Below, in pieces: positions 7,400 to 60,208 of a stretch of 64,000 nt of DNA. Origin of the DNA: Eledone cirrhosa (Eukaryota); assembly GCA_964016885.1 (NCBI GenBank), contig OZ024740.1, positions 300,824,001-300,888,000 on the forward strand, in the 5' to 3' direction. A model generated the notes under the pieces. The model did no database searches. It was given only the letters and a program-made list of their open reading frames with translations, and was not told the origin of the DNA. The position numbers and the translations under genes were made by a program. Position 1 is the stretch's first letter. Each line of letters starts with the position of its first letter.

Positions 7400-8306
7400 A
7401 CATCTTGATAGAGTAGACTGTGTTTAAAATTGGAAACTGAATATAAATATATAACCGTCTATAGAAGGGACTAAATTGAGACACCTTATAATGCATGTTA
7501 GAACAATAATTTAGTTATGGAAATCATCTAGTTACCTCCCCTTACGCATTAACGCCCCTTAATTACACACATACTTCCGGATAATAAACCGATGTAAATT
7601 CTCGCAACAGAAACAACCTACCCTATAAAATTGGATAAAAGAACACTGAGCCGCAATAAGCTAAAATAATTTAATTTAATACATCAAACATCCAATATCC
7701 AACATCGTTAATTATGTCATGGATGTATAAACTATATATTACATTTCCTGAATGTAAATATGATGGTGGATACGAAAACCATCACTCTCTTTTGCTTCTC
7801 CTTTCTATTTCTATTTTTCTGCGCACATACTTTTTTATCATATACAAAAAATACCTTACCACTGCAACCTCCATAATACTCTTGCTTACCCACATAAAGT
7901 GCTTGTATTACATGTAACACCCAGCCACACAATAATCATATATAAATGAGACACACATAACTAACGCATACAATAACTACTACATCTGGCTAACAAACTA
8001 TCCTCTTGCATTATCTATGTTAACTGCCGAATGTATTTTAATTTTGTTTTAATTTTAATTTTGTTGTAATTGTGATATTGATTATGACTTTGAATTTGAA
8101 TTGCTATATGGAAGTAATATAATATAATATATCACACTCCACTGTACATCAATATATACATATGTATCTGTATGTCTCTTGCGTTGGAAAGGAGGGCAAT
8201 CATGTGTACAAACATTGAACAATGGTCCGAAGACAGAAAACCTAGGTTTGGAATAAACAATTGTAAGTTAATAAATGCTTTGAACATATCTTTGATTCTT
8301 GTTAAT
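7400..8306 (+). mobile_element. Inverted Naiad 3'UTR/pLTR arm ending in (CT)n(TA)n
   Basis: 8015-8306 is the reverse complement of about 6560-6860. The CTAGTTACCTCCC motif near 7528 recurs near 21061. Confidence 0.65.
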
Positions 8307-8870
8307 TCTCTCTCTATCTCACTCTCTCTCTCTCTCTCTCTCTCTCTATATATATATATATATATATATATATATATATATATATATATATATATATATA
8401 TATATATATATATATATATATATATATATATATATATATATATGTATATATATATATAGAACTGCTGGACTAACAACGTAGCAGTCCCCTCAAGCACTAA
8501 TGGTGATTATCGCTAAATATTGATGTTGATTTGGTTATCAATATTAATATTATTGGGCACCCACTGAAGATTTATAAGTGCCCACTTGAATAAATATCTG
8601 TTGATCTTATACGAGCTTCTGCATAACTTGGTATAATTTCACCCAACTTGTAGAAATCTTATAATGAAACGAGTCGTTTGAGAAATGATATATTTGATAT
8701 ATCTCATATTAAGTAATACAGCCAATTATCCACACAATACAATACAGTTAACACCCAAACGTTTAATTGGGGATATACTGAGGTATTTCGTAATGTTTGT
8801 TGAGTGAGTTGGAATTTGGCTGGAGTATCGCTTTTAGCTGTCTCCGATTATGTATATATATATATATATA

Positions 8871-11800
8871 GACATAGAATATTCGAAAATATTCTGTATG
8901 TTTATAATAAACATTTTGAAGACCTAATCGCTATAGAATAGAATACGTCACGTATTACAATTAGATTCTCGATAAAAGCAAGGGAAGTAATCTACGCGTT
9001 TCATTCTAGTTAGAAATCCTCAGGACTACATATCCAGTGCTTTTATCGAGAATGACACAGCTAGAGACTTATAGAATACTTAGCTGTGTACAGGAACTGG
9101 TTTGAAAGAGCGGTTGCCGGTCCGGCAGAAATTAGAAATTGGAATAAATGCTCTGAAATAGCGATATATATGTGAATATAGACATAGAATATTCGAAAAT
9201 ATTCTGTATGTTTATAATAAACATTTTGAAGACCTAATCGCTATAGAATAGAATACGTCACGTATTACAATTAGATTCTCGATAAAAGCAAGGGAAGTAA
9301 TCTACGCGTTTCATTCTAGTTAGAAATCATCAGGACTACATATCCAGTGCTTTTATCGAGAATGACACAGCTAGAGACTTATAGAATACTTAGCTGTGTA
9401 CAGGAACTGGTTTGAAAGAGCGGTTGCCGGTCCGGCAGAAATTAGAAATTGGAATAAATGCTCTGAAATAGCGATATATATGTGAATATAGACATAGAAT
9501 ATTCGAAAATATTCTGTATGTTTATAATAAACATTTTGAAGACCTAATCGCTATAGAATAGAATACGTCACGTATTATAATTAGATTCTCGATAAAAGCA
9601 AGGGAAGTAATCTACGCGTTTCATTCTAGTTAGAAATCCTCAGGACTACATATCCAGTGCTTTTATCGAGAATGACACAGCTAGAGACTTATAGAATACT
9701 TAGCTGTGTACAGGAACTGGTTTGAAAGAGCGGTTGCCGGTCCGGCAGAAATTAGAAATTGGAATAAATGCTCTGAAATAGCGATATATATGTGAATATA
9801 GACATAGAATATTCGAAAATATTCTGTATGTTTATAATAAACATTTTGAAGACCTAATCGCTATAGAATAGAATACGTCACGTATTACAATTAGATTCTC
9901 GATAAAAGCAAGGGAAGTAATCTACGCGTTTCATTCTAGTTAGAAATCATCAGGACTACATATCCAGTGCTTTTATCGAGAATGACACAGCTAGAGACTT
10001 ATAGAATACTTAGCTGTGTACAGGAACTGGTTTGAAAGAGCGGTTGCCGGTCCGGCAGAAATTAGAAATTGGAATAAATGCTCTGAAATAGCGATATATA
10101 TGTGAATATAGACATAGAATATTCGAAAATATTCTGTATGTTTATAATAAACATTTTGAAGACCTAATCGCTATAGAATAGATTCACATATATATCGCTA
10201 TTTCAGAGCATTTATTCCAATTTCTAATTTCTGCCGGACCGGCAACCGCTCTTTCAAACCAGTTCCTGTACACAGCTAAGTATTCTATAAGTCTCTAGCT
10301 GTGTCATTCTCGATAAAAGCACTGGATATGTAGTCCTGATGATTTCTAACTAGAATGAAACGCGTAGATTACTTCCCTTGCTTTTATCGAGAATCTAATT
10401 GTAATACGTGACGTATTCTATTCTATAGCGATTAGGTCTTCAAAATGTTTATTATAAACATACAGAATATTTTCGAATATTCTATGTCTATATTCACATA
10501 TATATCGCTATTTCAGAGCATTTATTCCAATTTCTAATTTCTGCCGGACCGGCAACCGCTCTTTCAAACCAGTTCCTGTACACAGCTAAGTATTCTATAA
10601 GTCTCTAGCTGTGTCATTCTCGATAAAAGCACTGGATATGTAGTCCTGATGATTTCTAACTAGAATGAAACGCGTAGATTACTTCCCTTGCTTTTATCGA
10701 GAATCTAATTGTAATACGTGACGTATTCTATTCTATAGCGATTAGGTCTTCAAAATGTTTATTATAAACATACAGAATATTTTCGAATATTCTATGTCTA
10801 TATTCACATATATATCGCTATTTCAGAGCATTTATTCCAATTTCTAATTTCTGCCGGACCGGCAACCGCTCTTTCAAACCAGTTCCTGTACACAGCTAAG
10901 TATTCTATAAGTCTCTAGCTGTGTCATTCTCGATAAAAGCACTGGATATGTAGTCCTGATGATTTCTAACTAGAATGAAACGCGTAGATTACTTCCCTTG
11001 CTTTTATCGAGAATCTAATTGTAATACGTGACGTATTCTATTCTATAGCGATTAGGTCTTCAAAATGTTTATTATAAACATACAGAATATTTTCGAATAT
11101 TCTATGTCTATATTCACATATATATCGCTATTTCAGAGCATTTATTCCAATTTCTAATTTCTGCCGGACCGGCAACCGCTCTTTCAAACCAGTTCCTGTA
11201 CACAGCTAAGTATTCTATAAGTCTCTAGCTGTGTCATTCTCGATAAAAGCACTGGATATGTAGTCCTGATGATTTCTAACTAGAATGAAACGCGTAGATT
11301 ACTTCCCTTGCTTTTATCGAGAATCTAATTGTAATACGTGACGTATTCTATTCTATAGCGATTAGGTCTTCAAAATGTTTATTATAAACATACAGAATAT
11401 TTTCGAATATTCTATGTCTATATTCACATATATATCGCTATTTCAGAGCATTTATTCCAATTTCTAATTTCTGCCGGACCGGCAACCGCTCTTTCAAACC
11501 AGTTCCTGTACACAGCTAAGTATTCTATAAGTCTCTAGCTGTGTCATTCTCGATAAAAGCACTGGATATGTAGTCCTGATGATTTCTAACTAGAATGAAA
11601 CGCGTAGATTACTTCCCTTGCTTTTATCGAGAATCTAATTGTAATACGTGACGTATTCTATTCTATAGCGATTAGGTCTTCAAAATGTTTATTATAAACA
11701 TACAGAATATTTTCGAATATTCTATGTCTATATTCACATATATATCGCTATTTCAGAGCATTTATTCCAATTTCTAATTTCTGCCGGACCGGCAACCGCT

Positions 11801-58569: not shown

Positions 58570-59105
58570 TTTAGGTTTCTTGGTTTACCACTGGATAGAA
58601 CTGGACATTTCGTATGGTCAACCTCGATGTAATATTATAGAAAGCACTCAACGTAATGCAACTCACCCGTGTTACTTTGTGTTGTTGGTGGTACGAATAC
58701 GGAGTTAATTATTATAAAACAATAGGAGGCTGGACTGGTGTAATTCCTTAAAAGGTTTATTATACTATGATCATTTCAATGACTGGGTTCAGTATGAATC
58801 CGGTGACATCATCAGGTATTCGAAATATCACCTTGATCTCCTTGACCAACCAGTCTGTCGGACACAATTCGGCGCCGCTGGTCACAGCACGTGCTGTTAA
58901 AACCATACGATGACGCCATCACACTGAACATTCGAAATATAACAAAGTAATATAATAGACAAAATTCCCGTGGCTGAAAATCAGAGACATGAGCGCGACC
59001 GAACATTTAGTACCTTCCACCCCTGTTATCCACCCCCAAGTGGGGTCATTGAACAATAAACCTTTTAAGGAAGTACACCAGTCCAGCCTCCTGTTATTTT
59101 ATAAT
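58570..59105 (-). mobile_element. Third copy of the 22-24 kb HHR terminal-repeat family, with an inverted tail
   Basis: 58700-58828 matches the terminal repeat on minus, including the HHR at 58762-58819. 59055-59105 is an inverted tail. Begins TTTATTTAGGTTT like the 22091 element. TA flanks. Confidence 0.75.
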
Positions 59106-60208
59106 ATATATATATGTATATATATATATATATATATATATATATACGTAATCAGGAACGCTATTTTTCCAAATAGTCTATTCACCTTCGATGATTACCC
59201 TATACATATATAGAACAAACGTAAGTAGTCATCAAATGCCATGTGTATAAACAATGTACACGACAAAAAAAGCCAGCAATAACCAAAACATCTAGGGGAC
59301 AAGACCATCGGATTCTGAATTCGTAAAAATTCCATTCGGAAAAACAAAGCGTTCATGGACTAAATATCTATATTATAGGCAAGATATCCCACAATATAAA
59401 CCCTACCTCAGTCATCATCCATATATCCCAACCTTTAACCCTCTTTAGAATGAGTACGGTGGGCACGCATTGCTTCAAGCTGGAGTCGTCCAATTACGCA
59501 TTTTCTGTATAAGAATAGACATTAAATATCCGTTAGTATCCGCAGCGGCTACGATCCCATTACATAATAGGGTTTGCTCCACTGAAGAGTATCAGATGAC
59601 ACGCATCGGGGTACCCTGCGCAAAGAGAGACAACAATAAATAAATAAATAAAATAGAATGAGAATACATTACAGTAATACAACGGGAGGAAACATAATAG
59701 TATCACTTATGATGTCACAAATGTATGACCAAAGAACACTGAGAGACTATATTTATATCTATATATTTTAATTCTTTGTCAATCAATGATAAATATTGAT
59801 TGCCAACTGAATTAATTATATAAATATAAAATTTACTGAAGCGAAAACCAATCAAAGCCAAACAGTGAATGTGTTTTATTATATATTTATGTCAATATTA
59901 TAACAACATGACCCTCCCCAAATATAATAATATAAATACTAGAATGTTAAACATAATAAACATTTAATAAAACACTAATCTATTGGAGACAAAATACGAG
60001 TGAAGCGGCCAAAGACAAATATTACAAGAAGCCTAGTTCCTATTCCACATCCTATGAACCACAACAAGAATAAAGAAAATACCCAATTTATTAAGAAAGA
60101 AGTGACGTGAGCGAAATAAGTCCATCATGAATATTATATATATAAAAAATATGATATTCGGAATAATATACTCAATAGGCAACGCAACAGTCATAAATCT
60201 CAGTGCCA

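Follow-up and report, generated by a model that had tools for sequence, protein, structure and literature searches.

The window analyzed here, 64,000 nt of Eledone cirrhosa DNA (GCA_964016885.1, contig OZ024740.1, positions 300,824,001-300,888,000 of the forward strand), contains several families of non-coding units with predicted hammerhead ribozymes (HHRs), inserted among tracts of (TA)n and Penelope-like elements (PLEs). Within every family the 3' ends fall at two fixed sites, and an insertion with two arms has one arm ending at each site. From this anatomy, we consider it likely that the 517-bp, 548-bp, 2-kb, and 310-bp units are non-autonomous PLEs, copied in trans by a Hydra-clade reverse transcriptase (RT)-endonuclease (EN) that recognizes a bulged hairpin in their tails: because most of the units share this hairpin with a Hydra-type PLE, the Hydra enzyme is the likely copying activity, and likely recognizes the units by it.

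These insertions belong to a real, genome-wide system of non-autonomous PLE-type elements, the outline of which has been published as a hypothesis: both PMC7229834 and 10.64898/2026.07.22.740005 put forward PLEs as the mobilizers of retrozymes on the grounds of co-occurrence, shared HHRs, and similarity of pseudo-long terminal repeats (pLTRs). The original prediction for this window held that a (TA)n-targeting PLE enzyme with RT and GIY-YIG domains, priming on both strands, mobilizes such RNAs in trans. That proposal is well supported at the level of sequence by the hairpin and by a tail bounded by two start sites, but its Naiad label did not survive, and two of the families it named are assigned below to the ends of coding PLEs.

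Two fixed 3' ends, one for each arm

Opposed arms with outward-facing 3' ends were present in the window at the insertions beginning at 8866, 19851, 22088, 24472, 26103, 39515, and 58567 (Table 1). An inverted segment at the 5' side had been claimed for every family; such segments proved common but not universal. In the 310-bp family, 17 of 20 closely examined loci had opposed arms with their 3' ends outward, and all 17 paired a short end (unit position 296-311, an imperfect UA tract) with a long end about 35 nt beyond it. These 20 are the loci visible among the best 150 of 255 matches and, like the five-family set of 142 loci used below (150 minus 8 duplicates, each with a 1.5-kb flank), are best-scoring matches and no random sample.

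A direct genome-wide search for the short-end and long-end junctions of the 310-bp family gave 838 long-end and 843 short-end matches on the forward strand, and about 1,700 ends of each type overall; reverse-strand counts are inflated by a variable gap. Because both junction patterns contain TA, this census is uninformative on TA adjacency. In the first 59.2 Mb of sequence C1, the stretch covered by both junction lists, 28 long and 31 short ends formed 24 outward-facing short/long pairs and no same-type pair. The 11 unpaired ends comprised four further short/long pairs (one with a 10-nt arm), five single-armed insertions, and two unresolved cases. All five single-armed insertions, among 35 on this stretch, terminate at the short site.

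The five other families behave similarly. At 108 of the 142 loci, (TA)5 lay within 20 nt of the main 3' end, versus 6.0% of random positions; TA adjacency exceeds background. An inverted match was found within 1.5 kb at 83 loci, some of these matches being short and uncertain. Typed end pairs were of opposite class in 62 cases and of the same class (long/long) in three, at least two of which look mis-paired. The short-long offset was approximately 61-65, 92-99, 122, 139, or 145 nt in these families, and about 137 nt in an intact Hydra family (described later), in which all seven loci paired a short with a long end.

The partial tandem, the inverted 5'-truncated arm, and the one-sided tail that characterize PLE ends are therefore all present in non-coding families. 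This two-end pattern is the published PLE signature: PMC8557442 describes insertions with an inverted 5'-truncated copy and a 30-40 bp tail that is often one-sided. We found no earlier report of inverted retrozyme arms, or of a one-site-per-arm rule, in open-licence PMC or bioRxiv texts.

A bulged hairpin in the tails

When folded, the tails form a stem just 3' of the short site, in which RYUC is followed by an inner stem (3-7 bp), a loop (3-61 nt), a bulge that is UU in most cases, and GARY. This hairpin begins 2-10 nt 3' of the short site and is 24-33 nt in size. Besides the intact Hydra element, the majority of tail copies have it in the 517-bp (40/43), 548-bp (40/46), 2-kb (16/19), 39.5-kb (14/20), and pLTR (17/30) types, with inner stems that differ among families. 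The 612-bp and 200-bp units also carry it.

The hairpin descriptor was written post hoc, after inspection of the tails, and was then tried out of sample. In a 400-kb genome sample (defined in the next section), the hairpin occurred at 13 of 97 TTGARY words within 120 nt of TA, versus 12 of 660 elsewhere; for TTGAGY words, with the 200-bp family left out, it occurred at 6 of 41 near TA versus 7 of 207 elsewhere. A metagenome set of 78 loci encoding Hydra relatives at 36-43% identity contained 44 distinct HHRs, 20 of which had the strict hairpin within 250 nt on their 3' side, compared with one upstream, none antisense, and 0.7 in shuffled sequence. The sequence anchors alone were present in 34 of 43 cases, versus one upstream and 1.6 in shuffles; for this pattern the antisense control is uninformative, the anchors being self-complementary. 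Among 38 distinct anchored instances, the bulge was TT in 27, and the first inner pair was C-G in 12, U-A in 22, and unpaired in four. Three inner pairs could form in 25 of the 38, whereas 10,000 partner shuffles averaged 8.1 and reached 17 at most. Reading by eye also places the hairpin in two of six new Hydra consensus sequences given in PMC8557442 (exact in coral; with a UA bulge in sea cucumber), the remainder comprising two with a partial hairpin and two that end before the tail. In open-licence PMC and bioRxiv texts, we found no earlier report of the UU-bulged hairpin.

Hammerhead motifs in the window and the genome

HHR motifs were called with a type I descriptor of our own (score of at least 6.8), and background was estimated from shuffled sequence; the calls rest on this descriptor because Rfam, run on the window and on the 310-bp and 612-bp units, returned no match to a hammerhead or any other ribozyme. 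From Pfam came only a GIY-YIG match below threshold. The window, which has a G+C content of 35% and is rich in (TA)n, contained 25 motifs, 14 of them inside the 310-bp array, versus 0.8 at a score of at least 6 and 0.3 at a score of at least 7 in window shuffles. The lowest-scoring hit, at 61003, is probably due to chance. Allowing a longer stem II added two HHRs, both in the 517-bp unit, which had originally been set apart from the HHR families and is now seen to belong with them.

That the at least five HHR families named earlier lack mutual similarity was confirmed by blastn, which found no similarity between types and matches only within the pLTR type and within the 2-kb type (22-24 and 58.7 kb); two of those families, the 39.5-kb and pLTR types, are ends of coding PLEs by the evidence given below. 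HHRs had been assigned to the pLTR copies at 6604, 19890, and 21770. The scan accepted only the last of these (the 21.8-kb copy), whose core, CCGAUGA, is non-canonical; visual reading showed a weak stem I at 6604 and a broken core at 19890. The core CCGA(U/A)GA (U4C) was observed in several pLTR-type copies, including 21770-21812(+) and L262:4797. Separately, a 310-bp subfamily (locus L041; L222:4650-5263) has an altered HHR stem I and loop II, and one locus changes over to it from the common type near its center.

To extend these counts to the genome (3.0 Gb), 40 stretches of 10 kb were taken at fixed round coordinates. This 400-kb sample contained 25 HHR motifs versus 0.6 in shuffles, or approximately one per 16 kb, indicating that the system is a large component of the genome. 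A (TA)6 tract lay within 200 nt on the 3' side of 17 of the 25 (background 16%, p ~9e-9) and on the 5' side of six (p 0.2). An inverted match was found upstream of 14, some of which represent the two arms of a single insertion.

Coding elements of Hydra and Neptune type

As described in PMC8557442, Naiads have an N-terminal EN and a DKA motif and are without a canonical HHR; Hydra elements have a C-terminal EN, DKT, and CxCX5C, carry HHRs, and prefer (TA)n targets. The window elements at 3270 and 43637 encode a C-terminal GIY-YIG domain, DKT, and CxCX5C, and are thus of Hydra type by motif. The element at 27246, with a C-terminal EN behind a CX4CX2C linker, is of Neptune type by motif (criterion CX2-5CxxC), Nematis being the alternative. 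The Naiad identity proposed for these PLEs was rejected: the intact Hydra frame, the two Hydra elements of the window, and the Neptune-type copies all place the EN after the RT, and DKT and DKS are found in place of DKA. All three elements do have the head-to-head arms first described, but those given as 3270-7030 and 43637-48501 extend to 8309 and 48641, respectively, and only 27246-28931 kept its limits.

A protein search recovered an intact Hydra relative, whose 830-codon open frame (813 aa from the first Met) is present in many of the 150 matches listed. Its unit, which includes a long, TA-rich 3' region, measures about 6.06 kb, and the family is young, 16 copies being 98.9-100% identical. 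The 813-aa frame shows DKT, the CxCX5C linker, CxxC, and CxH, with C673, C681, and C687 invariant in 75 homologues, and reads RWR where the Hydra clade has RWK. Two other traits of the clade, (TA)n and a terminal HHR, are seen as well: the ends are TA, and the scan accepts the HHR of the 39.5-kb and 21.8-kb types, that of the intact family being read by eye only. When the intact frame was used in tblastn, RT and EN were placed upstream of the 39.5-kb HHR in many loci, and in two loci the pLTR type continues into, or comes after, a Hydra frame. Because Hydra frames lie beside both, we assign the 39.5-kb type and the pLTR type (6.6, 19.9, and 21.8 kb) to the 3' ends of coding Hydra-type PLEs. 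Neptune-type copies, 96-98% identical and flanked by TA, have open frames of up to 1121 codons (this longest with CX4CX2C before GIY-YIG) and two fixed ends about 58 nt apart.

In the window, tblastn with the intact Hydra frame gave no PLE protein match in the 310-, 517-, 548-, or 2,038-bp units, and none of these has a long frame. The first three have a GC content of 34-36% and longest ATG frames of 30, 34, and 120 aa, respectively, and follow the pattern of non-LTR retrozymes (LTR, long terminal repeat), that is, tandem units with one predicted type I HHR each.

Template, junctions, and targets

The 310-bp arms consist of up to 14.45 units with nothing else inside, crossing up to 14 intact predicted HHRs, and the 517- and 548-bp arms likewise pass from unit into unit. 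Because the arms cross so many intact HHRs, we infer that the template was multimeric or circular and that cleaved monomers did not serve as template. In four 310-bp loci, locus-private variants are common to both arms, and no locus was seen in which each arm is fixed for a variant of its own. Differences between units of the same arm do occur, however, and in one locus the central units match another natural subfamily, so one monomer circle was not always the sole template.

Central junctions of the 310-bp insertions have an overlap of 0-4 nt or 3-5 filler bases. Junction microhomology, which the original prediction suggested examining, is weak, with a mean overlap of 1.54 versus 0.75 expected (p=0.015; 13 junctions, four with extra bases having been dropped). 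Many insertions are flanked on both sides by the same interrupted TA satellite, or by the TA-tailed end of an older element, which suggests that the TA tracts existed before insertion. Target-site duplications were not discernible within TA, and a short non-TA word was present on both sides in one of 20 loci. At locus L046, the two flanks have a 10-nt non-TA word in common, which may represent a target duplication within the TA tract.

Among the contigs of four sequencing runs, the unit appeared as one closed 310-nt contig in three and was very deep in one, which was not used as a sign of expression because a tandem genomic repeat at such copy number looks identical. The 310-bp unit occurs in runs under four organism labels from four studies, with other letters at unit position 157.

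Proposed mechanism and alternatives

PMC11167929 reports that the purified protein of the anole Poseidon element PAc cuts and extends both strands, that two internal start sites bound the tail, and that the RNA substrate is uncleaved. On this basis we propose the following route. Arrays or pLTR-like tandems would be transcribed into multimeric or circular RNA, and the Hydra protein would bind the hairpin RYUC-stem-UU-GARY, the position of which is itself observed. The endonuclease would nick both strands of the TA tract, as does the anole PLE in vitro, and both 3' ends would be extended. One arm would be started at the short site and the other 35-145 nt further 3', a distance observed to be fixed within each family; both arms begin at A/U-rich places that match the target over a short stretch. 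The arms would then stop at the variable points that we see, and be joined head-to-head, either overlapping by 0-4 nt or with a few filler bases between them. Both arms would be copied from one template, or one pool of templates, with occasional template switching. A broader version, to which we give slightly less than even credence, is that Hydra proteins read a clade-wide UU-bulged hairpin and, using the two cut TA ends, begin a cDNA on either side of it, so that any RNA gaining the hairpin would become mobile. If true, that version explains how both ribozyme and non-ribozyme RNAs, otherwise unrelated, are moved, and names the partner of retrozymes; inverted arm and tail would be the products of one two-primer reaction.

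Several results weigh against recognition of all units by a Hydra enzyme through the hairpin. The strict descriptor matched only four of nine single reference tails, a shared-word test among tails was not significant, and the metagenome shuffle counts given above are not probabilities or p-values, because those loci are interrelated. The youngest family, the 310-bp unit, does not match the strict descriptor; its tail holds a 16-nt block, kept in relatives of 75-80% identity, that resembles a reduced hairpin at the same position, and with this look-alike alone the PLE partner of the 310-bp unit is unproven. Comparison of the non-coding families with the intact Hydra unit by blastn gave no convincing similarity, the hairpin being all that they have in common, and the scanner returned no HHR in the intact Hydra unit; by eye, an HHR-like core in which stem II has an insert of about 120 nt can be read in the intact terminus (locus L230, C2 near 170444600, upstream of the long end). 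Moreover, the tail rule alone cannot name the PLE partner, since Neptune-type copies also have a short and a long end and show no such hairpin by eye. The 612-bp unit has the hairpin and TA at 23 of 23 loci, an inverted arm at none of the 23, and no HHR; the hairpin is therefore insufficient for two arms, and TA adjacency alone proves nothing. More than one insertion route probably exists, and a ribozyme or circular template may matter for two-armed insertion. The anole PLE in vitro shows no strand difference in start-site use and needs no homology to the target (PMC11167929), unlike the pattern here of one site per arm and short A/U identity with TA. Finally, gene conversion or a single expressed source locus could account for the variants common to both arms.

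The 310-bp unit is also where a plurality of partners would chiefly apply. If Neptune-type or other PLE proteins moved some families, this unit above all, there would be no single shared system; the Neptune-type copies do have two ends and TA flanks, and the 310-bp tail, which is about 35 nt and without the strict hairpin, has a short word in common with the Neptune tail by eye. We regard this as rather unlikely, given that the 310-bp tail has an invariant block whose last letters, GAGCA(C), are those of the Hydra hairpin at the same position, that the Hydra and 310-bp families are equally young, and that blastn between the 310-bp unit and ten Neptune stretches found no similarity. A different objection concerns the number of events: short and long ends could reflect the order of nicks made by two independent protein-RNA complexes, or by successive events, in place of two primers on one RNA. 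For the most part, the 5' stop point of one arm bears no relation to that of the other, units of the same arm can differ, the subfamily switch of one locus lies near its center, and single-armed insertions exist with short-site ends only. Independent complexes would mix variants more often than is seen, however, rare variants being common to both arms in all four informative loci, and we judge this explanation unlikely.

That the non-coding units are merely truncated ends or amplified pLTRs of unseen autonomous PLEs, rather than independently moving RNAs, holds for two of the five types originally named; in addition, the 2-kb type was seen whole only in the window (genome loci having a 1.5-kb flank), and 10.64898/2026.07.22.740005 derives frog retrozymes from pLTRs. 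For the remainder this is quite improbable, as arms built of nothing but units, units running into units, and the lack of PLE protein matches or frames beyond 30-120 aa within them in the window all speak for independent RNAs, and an origin from pLTRs is compatible with trans-mobilization by a Hydra enzyme. Least probable by far is that the inversions arose secondarily, through fold-back or recombination at TA palindromes or as assembly artefacts, with TA tracts as by-products. Four of 17 central junctions are near-palindromic, with 5' ends at most 10 nt apart, and no empty allele was seen, but fold-back would copy the same end, whereas the ends differ by the fixed tail in nearly every pair, and the matching satellite or older element on both flanks makes the tracts look pre-existing.

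Relation to known systems

The units resemble the animal non-LTR retrozymes described in PMC7229834 and 10.64898/2026.07.22.740005 in being tandem, non-coding, and low in GC, with one type I HHR each. The available retrozyme texts mention no inversions, tails, or microsatellite targets, whereas the dispersed insertions here show the full anatomy of PLE ends. The coding partner agrees with the Hydra-clade PLEs of PMC8557442 in its C-terminal GIY-YIG, DKT, CxCX5C, CxxC/CxH, (TA)n, terminal HHR, and inverted 5'-truncated copy, but its 6.06-kb unit exceeds the less than 3 kb given there (a tendency and not a strict criterion). Tails of 61-145 nt likewise exceed the 30-40 nt described for PLEs, and the accessible portion of PMC8557442 describes neither non-autonomous partners nor a bulged hairpin for Hydra elements. 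Naiads, as described in the same source, share the (TA)n bias, inverted arm, and one-sided tail, and differ in EN position, DKA, and the lack of a canonical HHR. Movement of non-coding or unrelated sequence in trans by a PLE, via terminal cis sequences, has parallels in non-autonomous Chlamys elements such as MRC1 (PMC8557442) and in the pLTR-mediated trans-mobilization of Adineta (PMC3846280); in both cases terminal sequence is shared with the partner, whereas here only a small structure is held in common.

The enzyme that moves animal retrozymes has so far been a hypothesis drawn from co-occurrence and pLTR similarity, and the inverted arms and one-sided tail of PLEs have been explained in part, in vitro, for one element. 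The present data add evidence from insertion anatomy and a candidate cis signal for trans-mobilization by PLEs. Because a young non-coding family (~1,700 insertions) with the PLE signature, an intact young Hydra open reading frame, and a mutable hairpin of only 24-33 nt occur in the same genome, both questions are directly testable, and the hairpin descriptor can be used to find Hydra-dependent elements in other genomes.

Other features of the window

Table 1. Insertions and tail structures identified in the 64,000-nt window (positions relative to its first letter)
Feature	Position	Strand	Remarks
Decayed Hydra-type PLE, head-to-head	3270-8309		Left arm (-) 6857 to 3270: 5' pLTR, RT, GIY-YIG, rearranged 3' end; right arm (+) 6856-8309, ends in (CT)n(TA)n; from tblastn, self-alignment, and ends
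310-bp retrozyme, short-site arm	8866-10182	-	4.25 units, 4 HHRs
310-bp retrozyme, long-site arm	10182-13323	+	10.14 units, 10 HHRs; cleavage first predicted at 10366; terminates in (TA)45
Two-armed 3' end of Hydra-type PLE (pLTR type), 5'-truncated	19851-21948		Predicted HHR site 21812 (+), CCGAUGA core
2,038-bp non-coding HHR unit	22088-24375		Short inverted arm on left; main arm (+) ends at short site; HHRs 22277, 24315
548-bp non-coding HHR unit	24472-25816		Main arm (-), 2.3 units, long-site end; HHRs 24760, 25308; inverted arm 25713-25816
Bulged hairpin, 548-bp tail	24525-24557	-	
517-bp non-coding HHR unit	26103-27207		Left arm (-) short site, right arm (+) long site; predicted cleavage 26161(-), 27032(+)
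Bulged hairpin, 517-bp tail	27094-27117	+	
Neptune-type PLE fragment	27246-28931		EN and 3' untranslated region arm (-), short-site end by TA tract; RT arm (+) truncated at 28931
Short element with two arms, flanked by TA tracts	36836-37218		One arm ~40 nt longer; no full HHR found
Two-armed 3' end of coding Hydra-type PLE (39.5-kb type)	39515-40314		C-terminal EN and HHR; predicted site 39549(-)
200-bp element	43447-43638	+	115-nt hairpin, then tail with bulged hairpin 43565-43588; no HHR found; second copy near 58384-58549
Decayed Hydra-type PLE, head-to-head	43637-48641		Left arm (-) short-site end; right arm (+) 140-nt tail; short interspersed element (SINE) insertions inside
612-bp non-coding tandem unit	48642-49865	+	2 copies; hairpins 49156, 49768; TA at 3' end; no HHR found, no inverted arm
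2-kb type, second insertion	58567-59103		Left arm (-) long site, HHR 58766, hairpin 58646-58705; right arm (+) short site

Not every end in Table 1 sits directly in a TA tract, the exceptions being 3270 and 43637 on the left and 25816 and 28931 on the right. Tandem copies of the 612-bp unit, both in the window and at loci L291-L315, are 98-99% identical. Among 25 loci of the 200-bp element (L326-L350), TA is on the left in 24 and on the right in 23, and the element looks like a fixed miniature head-to-head insertion, that is, a PLE derivative resembling a miniature inverted-repeat transposable element.

Further HHR motifs, belonging to other families, occur at 14532(-), 33143(+), and 41445(+), lying 53, 133, and 260 nt, respectively, upstream of TA tracts. 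A GC-rich decayed non-LTR retrotransposon, presumably CRE-like, occupies approximately 14685-18000(-) and is truncated where the 14532 HHR element begins. That this HHR forms part of the retrotransposon was rejected, as 19 of 19 other copies run into different sequence. A SINE-like repeat, which may be an octopus repeat, is present in six copies (13490, 20660, 36006, 38440, 44235, and 47731), two of them inside the PLE at 43637. A helicase-like frame fragment at 2908-3273, presumably Helitron-like, adjoins the left end of the PLE at 3270.

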